Assembly: GCA_963828165.1 (NCBI GenBank)
Contig: CAWHDR010000001.1
Coordinates: 2,784,001 to 2,848,000 of the forward strand
Direction: 5' to 3'
DNA: 64,000 nucleotides
From: an uncultured Chloroflexia bacterium
GTDB taxonomy: Bacteria > Chloroflexota > Limnocylindria > Limnocylindrales > CSP1-4
This document shows positions 10,636-60,091 of this stretch, piece by piece. The stretch's first letter is position 1; every line of letters starts with the position of its first letter. The notes under the pieces were generated by a model. That model was given only the letters and a program-made list of their open reading frames with translations, was not told where the DNA came from and did not search any database. The position numbers and the translations under genes were made by a program.

Positions 10636-10905
10636 GTGCCGCTCGCGCGGGAACAGAAGCAGGAGATCATCACCGGGTATGCCACCAAGGAAGGTGACAC
10701 CGGTTCGCCCGAAGTCCAGGTCGCGCTCCTTACCGAGCGGATCGCGGAACTGACCGGGCATCTTCGCAGCTTCCCCAAGGACAACCATTCGCGCCGCGGC
10801 CTCCTCAAGCTCGTCGGCCAGCGCCGTCGCCTTCTCGCCTACCTGATGAAGAAGGACAGCGCGCGCTACCGGACCGTCATCGGACGGCTCGGGCTCCGCC
10901 GCTAG
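10636..10905 (+). CDS. rpsO: 30S ribosomal protein S15
   Basis: [13 protein letters not shown]...[23 protein letters not shown]; SD GGAGG. Confidence 0.98.
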
Positions 10906-11029
10906 CACCCGCCGTTTCCGGACCCCGGGCGTTACCCCGAGGTTCGCGTTTATCTCGGGGCCAGCAGCGCAGCAGGCCGACCCGCCCACGGGTCGTCTCC
11001 CTCCTCCACGACAAGGAGGATCGTTTCCC

Positions 11030-13613
<2,584 letters not shown>

Positions 13614-29921: not shown

Positions 29922-30027
29922 GGTCCGCGTAGCCTGCGTCGGGTCGGCTCACATCGGTGGTCCATGGCCATACCGTACCCTTGCACGCGCGAACCAGGTG
30001 CGTGCGGTCAAGCCGCCACGTCGGAGC

Positions 30028-30444
30028 TCAGGGCACGATCCGTTTCCGCGCATCGACGCCCTGGATCCCACGCTCGGTGAGCGCCGCCGCGAATCCCTCG
30101 AGATCGTCGACGGTGACGTACAGCGCCGGGACCCGGAACGGCCCGACCCGGACGCGCTCCACGAAGTCCAAGCGGACGCCGCCGTGGTGCGATCCCCCGA
30201 ACGTGATGTCCCGGTGGCGGACGCTCATCCGCACGCCGATCGCCGTGATCCAGAGCCACGGGCCCTCGATGCGCCAGCCGATGATGTTCGCCAGGGGCGT
30301 TACGCAGCGGAACCGCCCGAACCGTGCCTCCAGGTCGTCCTCGCGCAGCTCCACCCAGGCATCGTCGGGCCCGCCGACCCCGAACAGGCGGAGCAGCGGC
30401 CGCGATCGTCTGCCGAGGCGGATGGGGAACCGCATGGTTGGCAC
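30028..30444 (-). CDS. Hypothetical protein
   Basis: Coding-like ORF; TAGCCT 6 nt before the GTG start. Confidence 0.7.
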   Translation of the reverse strand: MPTMRFPIRLGRRSRPLLRLFGVGGPDDAWVELREDDLEARFGRFRCVTPLANIIGWRIEGPWLWITAIGVRMSVRHRDITFGGSHHGGVRLDFVERVRVGPFRVPALYVTVDDLEGFAAALTERGIQGVDARKRIVP

Positions 30445-30538
30445 CCGGGCAGGCTAGCGGCTCAGGATCGGGCCGTCCAACGTGGGACGGTGCGACCGCG
30501 CGGCTGCCCCGACGGCACGCCTTCGGTATCGTGGTGCG

Positions 30539-31066
30539 ATGCCGCCGTCGACCTCCCAGCTCCGGCTGCGCCCGTACACGGACGAGGATCGCTGGCTGAC
30601 CGAAACGATCGAGACGAGCCCCGTCATGATGGCCGACCTGGGCGGCCCTCTCCCCGAGGCCGACATCCCGGGGATCCACGCCCGGCGGCTCGAAGGGATG
30701 GCCGCAGACCGGCTGTGGTACTTCACCGTGGAGCTCGAACCTGAGGGCACGGCGGTCGGCACGATCTGCCTGTGGTCCGACGCCGTGGCTGGCGAGCTGC
30801 GCAGCGAGGCCGGTTGGGCGATCCTTCATGAGTACCAGGGTCGCGGCCTCGCAACGGAGGCCTTGCGACTCCTCATCGCGCAGGCCCGCGAGGACGGGCG
30901 GTGGGGCGACATCCACGCCTTCCCGGGCGTCTCGAACGGCCCATCCAATGCGGTCTGCCGGAAGAACGGCTTCGAGAATGTGGGGGAGGAGACCGTCCTC
31001 TACGCGGGCCGGCGGTTGGCCTGCAACCACTGGGTACTCGATGCCGAGGCACACCCGGCGGGTTGA
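30539..31066 (+). CDS. RimJ/RimL-type GNAT acetyltransferase
   Basis: YQGRGLATEAL, NGPSNAVCRKNGF. Confidence 0.88.
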   Translation: MPPSTSQLRLRPYTDEDRWLTETIETSPVMMADLGGPLPEADIPGIHARRLEGMAADRLWYFTVELEPEGTAVGTICLWSDAVAGELRSEAGWAILHEYQGRGLATEALRLLIAQAREDGRWGDIHAFPGVSNGPSNAVCRKNGFENVGEETVLYAGRRLACNHWVLDAEAHPAG

Positions 31067-31137
31067 CGACAGGGGCCCGCCCCGCGCCGCATGGTCATCC
31101 TGAGAGAGCGCGGGCATCCACCCGCCGAGAACAGGGC

Positions 31138-31166
31138 TTGTCATCCATTGGCGCGGATGGCACACT
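31138..31166 (+). promoter_or_regulatory. Putative sigma70 promoter of the leader peptide-sulfurtransferase transcript
   Basis: TTGTCA-17 nt-CACACT. Confidence 0.6.
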
Positions 31167-31175
31167 CCGCACACG

Positions 31176-31250
31176 ATGTACCGTCACACGATCGCCAAGC
31201 GCCGCTGTCTGTGTCCCACCCACGCCGAGCAGGGCAGGTGGTGTATCTAG
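31176..31250 (+). CDS. Cys-containing leader peptide (24 aa)
   Basis: MYRHTIAKRRCLCPTHAEQGRWCI; three TGT codons; lies between promoter and terminator. Confidence 0.75.
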   Translation: MYRHTIAKRRCLCPTHAEQGRWCI

Positions 31251-31290
31251 GCGTGCGATCCGCGTAACCCGCACGCCGCTCACCCCACCG

Positions 31291-31320
31291 GACCCCTGCA
31301 TTGGCAGGGGTTTTCGTTTT
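31291..31320 (+). terminator. Attenuator terminator upstream of the sulfurtransferase
   Basis: GACCCCTGC-ATTG-GCAGGGGTT followed by TTCGTTTT. Confidence 0.85.
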
Positions 31321-31357
31321 GTCCGGCATCCACGACCACCATTGAGGGACACACGGA

Positions 31358-32695
31358 ATGACCATCCTCCACGAGATCGCGAGCACGACCACCACGATCT
31401 CTACCGCTGAACTCCGTGATCGACTGGGCGATCCGCGATTGACGGTGATCGATGCCCGTCCGCTGACCGGCTACAACGGCTGGCGCCTGGAGGGCGAGGC
31501 CCGCGGCGGCCATCTCCCCGGCGCCGTCGCGTTCCCGAGCGCCTGGCTCACCAGCGTCGATCAACCCGAGATCCGCCGCATCCTCGACGAGAAGGGGGTC
31601 GTCGCGGAGCGGGACGTCGTCGTGTACGGCACCCGGCCCGATGACGCCGAAACCGTCGCCACGGCCCTGGCCGCGCTCGGCATCGAGAACGTCCGCATCT
31701 ACGCCGACGGCTTCTCCGCCTGGGCAGCCGATCCAGACCTGCCGCTCGAACGCCTCCCGAAGTACGACAAGCTCGTACACATCGACTGGCTACGCCGGGT
31801 GCTCGCGGGCGAGCGCCCAGAGGCTGCCCCGGAGGGCAAGTTCCTGCTCTTCCACGTGAACTTCGGGGTGCCCGAGGAATACGCTGAAGGCCACATCCCG
31901 GGGGCCCACTACCTTGATACGAACTGGCTCGAAGATCCGGCCGACTGGAACCGGCGGTCCCCTGAGGCGCTCGAGACCGCGCTGCGTGCCCTCGGGATCA
32001 CACACGACACGACCGTCGTGGTCTATGGCCGCGATACGGAGGGCCACGCGAACGAGAAGTGGCCCGGGCGTCGGGCTGGCCAGATCGCCGCAACCCGTGC
32101 GTTGATGATCCTGCGCTACGCAGGCGTCGACGACGTCCGCCTCCTCGACGGTGGGTACGACTGGTGGGTCAGGACCGGCAATCCGCTCCAGATCGAGCCC
32201 GTCGAGCCGACACCGGTGGGGGCCTTCGGGGTGCAGATCCCGCTTCGGCCGGAGGTCATCGTCGACATCGAAGAGGCCAAGCAGATCATCGCCGACCCCG
32301 CCGGAGCCGCGCTGGTCAGCATCCGCACGTGGCGCGAGCACATCGGCAATGTCAGTGGCTACAACTACATCGGTCCAGCGGGTCGGATCAAGGGCGACGT
32401 CTGGGGCAACTGCGGCACCGACGCCTACCACATGCAGCATTACCGCAACGTCGACAACACGATGCGCGCGTACCCCGAGATCACGGCCAACTGGGCCGAG
32501 GCCGGGATCACGGCCGACAAGTGGGTCGCGTTCTACTGCGGCACCGGGTGGCGGGCCAGCGAGACCTGGTTCTACGCGTACCTCCATGACTGGCCGCGGG
32601 TGGCGGTCTACGACGGCGGCTGGTTCGAGTGGAGCCAGGACCCGATCAACAACCCCATCGAGATCGGTGAGCCCGTCGAGGTGGACGCCGCCTGA
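31358..32695 (+). CDS. Three-domain rhodanese/thiosulfate sulfurtransferase (YnjE-like, no signal peptide)
   Basis: GHLPGA, GHIPGA, active-site FYCGTGWRASE, VYDGGWFEW. Confidence 0.92.
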   Translation: MTILHEIASTTTTISTAELRDRLGDPRLTVIDARPLTGYNGWRLEGEARGGHLPGAVAFPSAWLTSVDQPEIRRILDEKGVVAERDVVVYGTRPDDAETVATALAALGIENVRIYADGFSAWAADPDLPLERLPKYDKLVHIDWLRRVLAGERPEAAPEGKFLLFHVNFGVPEEYAEGHIPGAHYLDTNWLEDPADWNRRSPEALETALRALGITHDTTVVVYGRDTEGHANEKWPGRRAGQIAATRALMILRYAGVDDVRLLDGGYDWWVRTGNPLQIEPVEPTPVGAFGVQIPLRPEVIVDIEEAKQIIADPAGAALVSIRTWREHIGNVSGYNYIGPAGRIKGDVWGNCGTDAYHMQHYRNVDNTMRAYPEITANWAEAGITADKWVAFYCGTGWRASETWFYAYLHDWPRVAVYDGGWFEWSQDPINNPIEIGEPVEVDAA

Positions 32696-32868
32696 CCCGC
32701 GAGACGCAGGAGGCAACCCTGGGGTCGCCGTCAGGCGCTCACACAACGTGAACACGACCTTCTGAGCCGCTGGAGTCCGCGCACCGGGGCCGCGCTTGCG
32801 ATACGCGCGCAATCCCGCGTGCACCGGGCTTGACTCCTGTCGTCATCGTTTCGGCGCACCATCGAGCG

Positions 32869-33090
32869 ATGAACGATCGCGACCGTCAGCCAGGCCCGGA
32901 CAAGAGCCCGTCCGGACCGCGCGAAGCGAACGATCCGGGCTCGACTCGATACGGCACGAACTCGGGCTCCGGCGCCAATGAGCCGAAGCACCGGGAGCGT
33001 AAGGAGACCAGCCGGGGCTTCGAGCCGCGCCAGGGCGGCGACCAGACCCGGACGCAGCCGAGCCAGGGCGACCGGAGAAACGGACGATGA
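32869..33090 (+). CDS. Small hydrophilic hypothetical protein
   Basis: CACCAT 6 nt before ATG; ATGA overlap with the next ORF. Confidence 0.5.
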   Translation: MNDRDRQPGPDKSPSGPREANDPGSTRYGTNSGSGANEPKHRERKETSRGFEPRQGGDQTRTQPSQGDRRNGR

Positions 33091-59101: not shown

Positions 59102-60091
59102 GTGACGATCACCCGCAGGACCGCGAAGGCGCCGAAGACCGCGCTGCCGACCTTCATCCCGCCGATGCTCGCGACGCTGGTGGCCGTCCCGTTCGACGAT
59201 CCGGACTGGCAGTTCGAGATCAAGTGGGACGGCTTCCGGGTCGAGGCCATCGTCGAAGGCGGCACGGTCCGGCTCCTGACGCGCGGACAGCAGGACGCCG
59301 CAAGGTATTTCGGGCCGTTCCTGGAGCCGCCGACCTGGATCTCCGCGGGCCTGGCCGTCGTCGATGGCGAGGTCATCGCGATCGACGATCACGGCGAGCC
59401 CGATTTCGCGCTGCTCCAGGCCCGGATCAAGGGCGGCGGCAGGGGAGACGCGGCGACGCCGTTCATCTACGAGGTGTTCGATCTCCTCTTCCTCGATGGT
59501 CGGTCGTTGCTCGACGAGCCCCTGGAGAACCGCAGACGCATGCTGGGCGAGGTCCTGCGCCCCGACCCACGTGTCCGCCTGAGCGAGGACATCGCCGGGG
59601 ACGGGATCGCGTTCTTCGAGGCAGCGAAGGTGCGTGGCCTCGAGGGCATCATGGCCAAGGACCGTCGCTCGACCTACCTGCCCGGGAAGCGGTCGATGGC
59701 CTGGCAGAAGATCAAGATCCGGCCGGAGCAGGAGCTCGTGGTCGGTGGGTACACGCGCGGGACAGGGACAGCGGTGGATCTCGGCGCCCTGCTCGTCGGG
59801 GTCTACGAGGCTGGCGCGCTCCGATATGCCGGCAAGGTGGGCGCCGGCTTCACCGCCGACGTCCGAAAGGAGCTCCTGACCGCGATCGAACCGCTGGCAG
59901 CCGACGAGTCACCGTTCGCGATCCGACCACCCCGGGCCGCGGCTCGGAACGCCATCTGGCTTCGCCCGGAGCTTGTCATCCGGGCCGAGTTCGCTGGCTG
60001 GACCGGCGACGGACTCGTCCGCCAGGCGGCGTACAAGGGCTTCGATCTCGGCAAGGACCCCAAGGCCGTCGTTCGTGAGGCGCCCGGGTAA
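59102..60091 (+). CDS. ligD: ATP-dependent DNA ligase, LigD ligase domain only
   Basis: EIKWDGFR, VDGEV, FDLL, EGIMAK, W.KIK, YAGKVGAGF, WLRPELV. Confidence 0.88.
   Translation: MTITRRTAKAPKTALPTFIPPMLATLVAVPFDDPDWQFEIKWDGFRVEAIVEGGTVRLLTRGQQDAARYFGPFLEPPTWISAGLAVVDGEVIAIDDHGEPDFALLQARIKGGGRGDAATPFIYEVFDLLFLDGRSLLDEPLENRRRMLGEVLRPDPRVRLSEDIAGDGIAFFEAAKVRGLEGIMAKDRRSTYLPGKRSMAWQKIKIRPEQELVVGGYTRGTGTAVDLGALLVGVYEAGALRYAGKVGAGFTADVRKELLTAIEPLAADESPFAIRPPRAAARNAIWLRPELVIRAEFAGWTGDGLVRQAAYKGFDLGKDPKAVVREAPG

Follow-up and report, generated by a model that had tools for sequence, protein, structure and literature searches.

In the trp leader of E. coli and the his leader of Salmonella, a short leader open reading frame (ORF) carries codons for the amino acid being sensed, the RNA can form mutually exclusive 1:2, 2:3 and 3:4 pairings, and a ribosome stalled at these codons frees segment 2 while a ribosome at the stop codon covers it. 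For cysteine, Canestrari et al. (2020) described leaderless polycysteine small ORFs (sORFs) of mycobacteria that control translation through sequestration of the Shine-Dalgarno sequence; one of these heads the cysA2 operon, and the authors call attenuation by an upstream ORF (uORF) previously undescribed for cysteine (10.1101/834739). Seliverstov et al. (2005) presented candidate Cys leader peptides upstream of cys/cbs operons of Actinobacteria (PMC1262725), and Brewer et al. (2021) predicted that cysS of Rhodobacterales is preceded by a Cys uORF attenuator of the terminator type, uORFC-8-2 (PMC8632094). Here we analyzed a stretch of 64,000 nucleotides (nt), hereafter the window, from an uncultured Chloroflexia bacterium (contig CAWHDR010000001.1). 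As judged from its sequence, the leader region of a three-domain rhodanese-family gene in this window very probably contains a ribosome-mediated transcription attenuator of the trp/his type, which would read charged tRNA-Cys and control the rhodanese gene as a monocistronic unit. Most likely, the gene would be turned on when cysteine is short.

The candidate element resembles the trp and his leaders in its short leader ORF with codons for the sensed amino acid, in its predicted mutually exclusive pairings, and in the positions at which a stalled or a terminating ribosome would free or cover segment 2. It differs from them in that it would sense cysteine, through two codons split by one (CxC); in that its uORF is probably leaderless, beginning 7-10 nt after the -10 hexamer with no Shine-Dalgarno sequence; in an extra conserved hairpin, H, between segments 2 and 3; and in its target, a single sulfurtransferase gene of Chloroflexota as opposed to a biosynthetic operon. 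With the mycobacterial sORFs it shares a probably leaderless start and Cys codons that would report cysteine through ribosome stalling, and both the cysA2 operon and the present locus encode a rhodanese-type sulfurtransferase. However, the mycobacterial sORFs are defined by at least two consecutive Cys codons, whereas the window has C-L-C and some relatives CC, CCC or CCCC; in mycobacteria the Cys tract pairs with the Shine-Dalgarno region and no intrinsic terminator is involved, while the present element has a conserved terminator with a U-run (10.1101/834739). In uORFC-8-2, too, the AUG and two Cys codons are conserved and an intrinsic terminator is present, and, like the present element, it is known from comparative evidence only. 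It is nevertheless distinct: it belongs to another phylum, precedes the cysteinyl-tRNA synthetase gene, and has tandem Cys codons (14-15), mostly UGC, inside the first stem (PMC8632094), whereas the element described here has its CxC codons (11 and 13), mostly UGU, ahead of the stems. The Actinobacterial leaders are likewise short ORFs with Cys codons near the stop, upstream of sulfur-metabolism genes; they have runs of Cys codons and no recognisable terminator (PMC1262725), unlike the present element with its conserved terminator and predicted antiterminator. The mechanism is already known, and a terminator-type Cys attenuator has been predicted before, for cysS in Rhodobacterales (PMC8632094). 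New are the lineage, the target, the CxC arrangement instead of tandem codons, and the combination of a probably leaderless start with a true terminator; our literature search found no paper on cysteine leader-peptide transcription attenuation in Chloroflexota.

The initial annotation of this DNA, made from the sequence alone, had proposed a promoter TTGTCA-17-CACACT, a 24-codon uORF with Cys codons 11, 13 and 23 all spelled TGT against a local TGC bias, an inner hairpin and an intrinsic terminator. All of these were recovered in our analysis (Table 1). TGT is the minor Cys codon in the window (TGT 17 : TGC 103 in 47 candidate genes) and absent from the rhodanese gene itself (TGT 0 : TGC 2). 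The terminator hairpin has 10 pairs, 6 of them G-C, and a 4-nt loop, and is followed by TCGTTTTGTC; alone it folds at -17.4 kcal/mol in the window, and the antiterminator adds less. TTGTCA-17-CACACT was missing from the output of a consensus promoter scan, as CACACT agrees with TATAAT at 3 of 6 positions only. Terminator-like sites numbered 1 in 3 kb against 0.8 expected from shuffles, and Rfam 15, riboswitch families included, gave no match at E ≤ 1 on either strand of positions 30000-33000. Taken singly, the window does not beat chance; the feature is raised above chance by its conservation in related genomes. The possibility that the hairpin simply terminates the upstream gene was ruled out by the conserved promoter lying between the stop of the GNAT gene (31066) and the uORF, and by the differing upstream genes among loci.

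Of 8000 candidates that were scored, 4306 are relatives of the rhodanese protein at E ≤ 0.001; the best 120, drawn mainly from metagenomes, are 78-94% identical. For comparison we used 80 loci from genome contigs (L001-L080), with proteins 67-95% identical and labels that are mostly Candidatus Limnocylindrales, Limnocylindria or "uncultured Chloroflexia". When the intergenic leader was compared with these loci by blastn, DNA conservation reached far past the closest relatives and was focused on positions 31224-31319. The 16-mer of segment 2, GCAGGGCAGGTGGTGT, is found exactly in 35 of the 80 loci as well as in the window. An alignment of the window with 52 loci (A1; 53 rows, 168 columns) served to build a covariance model, R1, which matched the plus strand of the window and of 55 of the 80 loci with 64-143 bits, once per locus, every element lying directly upstream of the orthologous rhodanese gene. 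Matches in L010 (26.6 bits) and L035 were weak and L040 had none; L021 has no upstream sequence. Minus-strand matches at the same sites correspond to the palindromic hairpins. A search for a regulon with R1, covering the 64-kb window and the 2.5-kb flanks of the 80 loci, returned no further copy, the next-best match in the window being at 59694-59787 (minus strand) with E = 0.2. The genes flanking the rhodanese gene, surveyed with Pfam in 79 of the 156 nearest-neighbour ORFs (those from L001-L040), vary between loci and include GNAT, AlkZ-like, PPK2, pirin, MFS, GH25 and others. Given this diversity of neighbours, the leader belongs with the rhodanese gene, which stands alone. The distance between the conserved core (segment 2, hairpin H and terminator) and the gene ranges from 83 to 227 nt, and this spacer is not conserved. 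The alignment and the model thus contain what the initial annotation had suggested looking for upstream of orthologues, namely Cys-containing uORFs and covarying stems, as detailed below.

The arrangement of promoter and start codon is a constant trait of the leaders. The pattern TTGnnn, a 16-19 nt spacer, nAnnnT, a gap of 7-10 nt and ATG occurs in 51 of 53, with spacers of 17 nt in 35 rows, 18 nt in 15 and 19 nt in one, and gaps from the -10 hexamer to the ATG of 9 nt in 26 rows, 8 nt in 16, 10 nt in 7 and 7 nt in 2. The two leaders that miss the pattern, L048 and L060, do so through a gap of 11-12 nt alone. A gap of 7-10 nt is too short to accommodate a Shine-Dalgarno sequence, so the transcript probably has no 5' untranslated region or only a minimal one of roughly 0-3 nt and would count as leaderless or almost leaderless. 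The ATG is in frame with the Cys codons, the core and the stop in 49 of the 53 rows, giving uORFs of 21-29 codons; in these rows the ATG lies 60, 63, 66 or 69 nt from the core, so that indels come in threes although the N-terminal part of the uORF, where they fall, is otherwise unconserved. L005 and L055 are two exceptions, out of frame with distances of 67 and 68 nt. In L005 (2354-2499), which comes from a long-read bin, a one-base difference shifts the frame and could be an assembly error. In L055 (2335-2483), the uORF runs through four consecutive Cys codons and on across the terminator. The aligned stop codon is TAG in 40 rows and TGA in 7, and the other 6 rows end a few codons later, inside the hairpin. 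Nearly every leader thus conforms to M-(variable)-C-x-C-(5-6 residues)-A-E/M-Q-G-R-W-C-x-stop, and the uORF looks translated.

Within the uORF, cysteine is strongly overrepresented: it accounts for 14.5% of uORF codons versus 1.2% in the long ORFs of the window. Ahead of the core, the 49 in-frame uORFs contain 116 Cys codons in total, with two in 28 uORFs, three in 18 and four in one, hence at least two in 47 of 49. The Cys13 column of A1 is TGT in 52 of 53 rows, whereas the Cys11 column has TGT in 27, TGC in 17 and other codons in 9; in these 9 rows a Cys codon usually lies one or two codons off, yielding CC, CCC or CxCxC, and the codon between Cys11 and Cys13 takes 13 forms. Even L055, in which the frame is lost relative to the core, has kept a stretch of four Cys residues (...NCCCCP...). 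As TGT/TGC spelling and positions vary while cysteine persists, selection acts on the Cys codons as such. The rare TGT makes up 72% of these regulatory codons (83:33). The invariant Cys codon precedes the conserved last Cys codon by 10 codons, a spacing shown by 47 of the 116 upstream Cys codons and which each uORF can contribute at most once. The last codon itself, Cys23, cannot aid induction, because a ribosome stalled there would cover segment 2. Apart from cysteine, the N-terminal two thirds of the uORF are unconserved. The conserved C-terminal AEQGRWC, in turn, is under constraint as RNA and not as peptide, since its codons GGC AGG TGG TGT show no synonymous variation and the residue changes that do occur are non-conservative (R to G/N/W, W to R/G). 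Four diverged leaders missed by R1 (L014, L018, L065 and L066) have a promoter-like site plus a Cys-bearing short ORF, and a scan for terminator-like hairpins detected a strong one in L014, L065 and L066.

Pairing potential was then quantified for the named helices as the percentage of A1 alignment cells that are paired. The terminator scores 91.5%, with 6 of its 7 core pairs unchanged in at least 52 of 53 rows, and a G+C-rich hairpin plus U-run is present in all 53. Hairpin H scores 87.9%; its loop varies and compensatory changes affect 3 of its 8 pairs (e.g., U-A to C-G in 5 rows). This hairpin may serve to bring segments 2 and 3 together and/or to cause pausing. The hairpin between segments 1 and 2 scores 80.2%, with both-side changes in 4 of 11 pairs. 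For the three helices jointly, the observed count of covarying pairs was reached by 4 of 500 shuffles, and sliding the helix partners lowered pairing from 86% to 42-46%. The predicted antiterminator can form in two registers, as segment 2 holds two tandem GCAGG: GCAGGG (31229-34) pairs with CCCUGC (31294-99) in 98.1% of cells, and GCAGG-U-GGU (31234-42) pairs with ACCCCUGC (31292-99) in 96.0%. L028 and L033 have the second register only; L043, L045, L067 and L074 have the first only. The complementarity originally noticed, between GCAGGG..GGTGG (31229-31241) and CCACC..CCCTGC (31285-31299), is real and appears in the unconstrained minimum free energy (MFE) fold of the window, and its GCAGGG/CCCUGC part is conserved; the GGTGG/CCACC extension turned out to be window-specific, with 66.4% of cells paired and the central U-A in 9 of 53 rows. 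Run on A1, RNAalifold did not return hairpin H or the antiterminator; it returned the terminator core, a weak 1:2 pairing in another register, and a helix UGUC/GGCG between columns 28-31 and 67-70 (window 31212-31215 with 31250-31253). Here UGUC, formed by the invariant Cys13 codon and the next base, pairs with GGCG, the first four bases of the 5' arm of H, and in 4 rows one of the pairs has changed in a compensatory manner. The helix could act as one more alternative pairing, tying the Cys codon to hairpin H.

To relate these structures to ribosome position, the ribosome was modelled in all 53 rows as a block of unpaired nucleotides, with assumed footprint sizes. Before segment 3 is made, segment 2 pairs with upstream sequence in 52 of 53 rows. 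When the block extends to 12 nt beyond the first base of the invariant Cys codon and the RNA ends with segment 3, the latter is paired to segment 2 in 53 of 53. When the ribosome is placed at the stop codon instead (-18 to +14), 51 of 53 rows form the terminator. The proposal that a stall at C11/C13 frees the antiterminating segment, and that a ribosome at the stop covers it, is well served by these constrained folds. The following course of events can be envisaged. Transcription would start at or within a few bases of the uORF ATG, as suggested by the promoter spacing, and a ribosome would translate the 24-codon leader. When Cys-tRNA is plentiful, the ribosome would reach the TAG codon and cover segment 2 together with the foot of H; the 5' arm of the terminator would then be free for the 3' arm, and RNA polymerase would terminate at the U-run. 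When Cys-tRNA is scarce, the ribosome would stall with codon 11 or 13 in its A site, covering segment 1 and not segment 2. Segment 2 would pair with the terminator 5' arm once the latter is made, no terminator would form, and the rhodanese gene would be transcribed. The conserved leader ORF, Cys codons, terminator and competing segment all support the classical terminator-type Cys attenuator put forward in the initial annotation.

Table 1. Positions in the window of the components of the proposed attenuator, the gene it would control and the upstream neighbour
Feature	Coordinates	Strand	Remarks
GNAT acetyltransferase gene	30482-31066	+	Upstream neighbour of the leader region (31138-31357)
-35-like hexamer TTGTCA	31138-31143	+	Read from the sequence
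-10-like hexamer CACACT	31161-31166	+	17-nt spacer after TTGTCA; uORF ATG 9 nt downstream
Leader uORF MYRHTIAKRRCLCPTHAEQGRWCI, 24 codons plus TAG	31176-31250	+	TAG at 31248-31250
Cys-x-Cys regulatory codons TGT CTG TGT (codons 11-13)	31206-31214	+	Aligned codons
uORF Cys codons 11, 13 and 23	31206-31208, 31212-31214, 31242-31244	+	All TGT
Segment 1, 5' strand of the hairpin with segment 2	31216-31226	+	Equivalent of trp 1:2
Segment 2, GCAGGGCAGGTGGTGT, predicted antiterminator strand	31229-31244	+	3' end of uORF, codons 18-23 including Cys23
Hairpin H, GGCGTGCG/CGCACGCC	31250-31277	+	Begins at last base of stop codon; enclosed by the antiterminator
C-rich variable linker	31278-31289	+	Contains CCACC (31285-31289)
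Intrinsic-terminator hairpin	31290-31313	+	5' arm (segment 3) 31290-31299, loop 31300-31303, 3' arm (segment 4) 31304-31313
Terminator U-run TTTTCGTTTT	31311-31320	+	T-rich run follows the hairpin throughout A1
Shine-Dalgarno-like GAGG of rhodanese gene	31344-31347	+	10 nt 5' of ATG; outside conserved structures
Regulated gene, three-domain rhodanese-family sulfurtransferase	31358-32695	+	445 residues; EanB-like/YnjE-like

A number of observations weigh against this interpretation. The fold of the window leader is unremarkable (z = -1.67), 15 of 200 shuffles folding equally well. The uORFs of L054 and L079 hold one upstream Cys codon only. The register of the 1:2 hairpin is ambiguous, several being possible, and the one picked by RNAalifold is another than ours. 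Neither register of the antiterminator shows covariation, because both strands are nearly invariant; the pairing rests on conservation and complementarity and is to be read as a prediction, near-invariance being what one would expect of a segment that pairs with two partners and is translated as well. The very strong conservation of segment 2 and of the H stem could hide a further function. The antiterminator is also the weaker structure: in the constrained folding suggested at the outset, which otherwise gave the expected pairings, full-length RNA carrying a Cys-stalled ribosome keeps the terminator in its MFE fold in 37 of 53 rows. Given this persistence, the switch must be kinetic, and kinetic trapping is assumed here. 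The E. coli trp leader likewise relies on kinetic trapping, with a terminator stronger than the antiterminator and two regulatory codons. Furthermore, in 34 of 53 rows the naked nascent RNA folds into the antiterminator without any ribosome, which makes the default state without translation ambiguous. On the side of physiology, no Pfam family recognised as a cysteine-pathway enzyme was found in the 55 window ORFs or the 79 neighbour ORFs scanned, and the closest characterised homologue of the enzyme, which we take to be EanB (see below), presumably consumes sulfur rather than supplying it, so that any physiological logic put forward here is tentative.

Three other explanations were weighed against the Cys attenuator. 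The conserved core might be a riboswitch or a protein-binding RNA, with a metabolite or regulator making the decision and the uORF being incidental or secondary. The exact conservation of the 16-mer exceeds the needs of pairing alone, the H stem is conserved in sequence beyond pairing, and the antiterminator formed by naked nascent RNA means that a factor other than the ribosome could tip the balance. We nonetheless regard this as quite unlikely: near-invariance is expected anyway of segments that have two partners and also encode peptide, the stems are conserved while loops and linkers vary (the reverse of the usual aptamer pattern), and the Rfam search at E ≤ 1 was negative over 30000-33000. 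Such an RNA also leaves unexplained why promoter and ATG keep a fixed arrangement and why the ATG is in frame in 49 of 53 rows, as well as the indels in threes, the exchange of TAG and TGA, and the upkeep of Cys codons through synonymous and positional changes.

Alternatively, the product of the uORF might be a functional small Cys/His-rich peptide, for example one that binds metal or sulfur, made from an ORF with its own terminator, while the rhodanese gene is transcribed separately. The strong terminator after the ORF, the conserved A-E/M-Q-G-R-W-C terminus and the HHH(H)CMCH of a 14-row clade, which resembles a metal-binding motif, would fit a peptide of this kind. It is made very unlikely by the lack of conservation of the N-terminal two thirds other than at Cys, and by the C-terminus, where absent synonymous variation and non-conservative changes indicate a constraint on the RNA. 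In nearly every row the terminator's 5' arm and the 3' end of the same ORF are complementary, the element is always located ahead of the rhodanese gene, and the 37 nt that separate the U-run from the rhodanese ATG in the window contain no listed promoter-like site. Finally, stalling might open a structure that hides the ribosome-binding site of the rhodanese gene, with no termination involved. This would be translational control as in mycobacteria, whose Cys-responsive sORFs are leaderless and sequester the Shine-Dalgarno sequence, one heading the cysA2 operon (10.1101/834739). At the present locus it is very unlikely: the GAGG sequence lies 30 nt past the hairpin and in no conserved pairing, the spacer between core and gene is unconserved and 83-227 nt long, and all 53 rows have the G+C-rich hairpin with its U-run.

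The product of the regulated gene contains three stretches matching Pfam PF00581. It was initially called YnjE-like; the three-domain architecture is indeed that of YnjE, but the closest solved relatives are PDB 6h98/6ktv (about 407 bits, E about 5e-121), nearer than E. coli YnjE at 303 bits. These two entries are labelled just "Sulfurtransferase"; we take them to be EanB, the O2-independent ergothioneine synthase of Chlorobium limicola. Their chain lengths and alignment offsets fit a protein of 457 residues with the Cys and Arg of a CGTGWR loop at 412 and 417 and a Tyr at 353. The residue numbers 353, 412 and 417 published for EanB agree with these offsets (PMC10903977), and our literature search found no paper joining the PDB codes 6H98/6KTV with EanB. 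EanB, YnjE and the window protein share the three-rhodanese-domain architecture, and the last keeps, in common with EanB, the CGTGWR active-site loop (C394-R399), which holds the catalytic Cys in EanB, and the Tyr (Y335) aligned to the catalytic Tyr353 of EanB. As to the EanB pathway partner, no EanA/EgtD-type histidine methyltransferase (PF10017, which we take to be the accession of this family) was present in the 55 window ORFs or the 79 of 156 neighbour ORFs scanned. PALP-domain neighbours in L002, L028 and L033 were considered as cysteine synthases and rejected, for they score best as threonine synthase or dehydratase. The suggestion made in the initial annotation, that the enzyme feeds sulfur to cysteine synthesis, is thus a hypothesis drawn from the regulator and not from gene context.

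A side observation concerns the composition of some leaders. In a clade of 14 rows (support 100), the Cys codons are immediately preceded by three or four His codons, e.g., MTRTHHHCMCHAAAEQGRWCR; 13 of these rows are L038, L039, L042, L046, L048, L050-L054 and L059-L061. The His-rich uORFs lie about 110-150 nt upstream of the gene match, and His makes up 7.5% of all uORF codons versus 2.4% in the background. Stalling at the His codons might also free the antiterminator, resulting in dual His/Cys sensing in this clade. A histidine derivative is the substrate of the enzyme's closest characterised relative. Ergothioneine-type thiohistidines are abundant in soil. Since cysteine-derived sulfur and histidine are the building blocks of ergothioneine, a possible response to both amino acids suggests that the enzyme could act in salvage rather than in synthesis, stripping sulfur from ergothioneine-type thiohistidines, thiosulfate or polysulfide and passing it to cysteine synthesis; another option is the production of a cysteine-sparing thiol under cysteine shortage. 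Many EanB-like three-domain rhodaneses have no assigned function, according to one article (PMC9516567). That the attenuator can be used as a functional label for this uncharacterised branch, marking genes switched on by cysteine starvation and enzymes with a salvage or cysteine-sparing role, is an unlikely reading, which we would advance as a conjecture. In L010 and L040, which carry at most a degenerate leader, a gene of the MttB family (trimethylamine or quaternary-amine methyltransferase) lies convergent and immediately 3' of the orthologue (L010:1933-3900 and L040:3834-4313, both minus strand); its presence would fit histidine-betaine breakdown.

The distribution of leader types was examined on a quick maximum-likelihood IQ-TREE tree of 75 of the 81 proteins (L032, L036, L037, L047, L069 and L078 were left out, having no single long high-scoring segment pair). 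Attenuator leaders occupy most of the tree (51 rows, 3 changes). A well-supported clade of 13 rows, with Actinomycetota and Dormiibacterota labels and some "Chloroflexi CF" bins, has other upstream elements, namely a promoter palindrome in 7 rows and a TTTACTTTG box in 4. The palindrome rows (L023, L024, L026, L027, L029, L030 and L031) form a clade with support 99 and lack the attenuator. Their inverted repeat, GTTGACTAT..(GGATTG)..ATAGTCAAC, overlaps a promoter-like TTGACT about 90-130 nt upstream of the rhodanese match and looks like a putative operator for a transcription factor. The CGCTTTACTTTGTAAACT-like box is found about 100-170 nt upstream in L068, L072, L076 and L080, which belong to bins labelled Gaiellaceae, Thermoleophilia and Actinomycetes, and may represent a third mode of regulation of the same gene. 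In L007 (2402-2500), a promoter-like TTGCCA-17-CACAAT is kept while terminator and core are gone, and an ORF that begins inside the -10 box crosses two adjacent Cys codons (LCC) into the rhodanese start region; this may be a degenerate or translationally coupled version of the leader. Elsewhere in the window, a polynucleotide-phosphorylase-like ORF at 10850-13513 (plus strand; RNase_PH twice, RNase_PH_C, KH) carries an insert unusual for such an enzyme: residues 313-465 of its stop-to-stop frame strongly match an RNase_T/DEDD exonuclease (E 9e-31).

In the literature that we found, cysteine leaders comprise mycobacterial translational switches, Actinobacterial candidates devoid of terminators, and a prediction for cysS in Rhodobacterales. 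To this short list of cysteine-sensing leader peptides the present work adds a well-supported terminator-type attenuator, as predicted here from comparative data, and it would widen the range of leader-peptide attenuation to include a class of Chloroflexota that is uncultured and abundant in soil (Limnocylindria-type bins). The orthologues that elsewhere carry a putative palindromic operator or a TTTACTTTG box make this gene a natural experiment in regulator swapping. For the EanB-like three-domain rhodaneses, the leader offers a regulatory clue: the enzyme encoded in the window appears to be part of the response to cysteine limitation.

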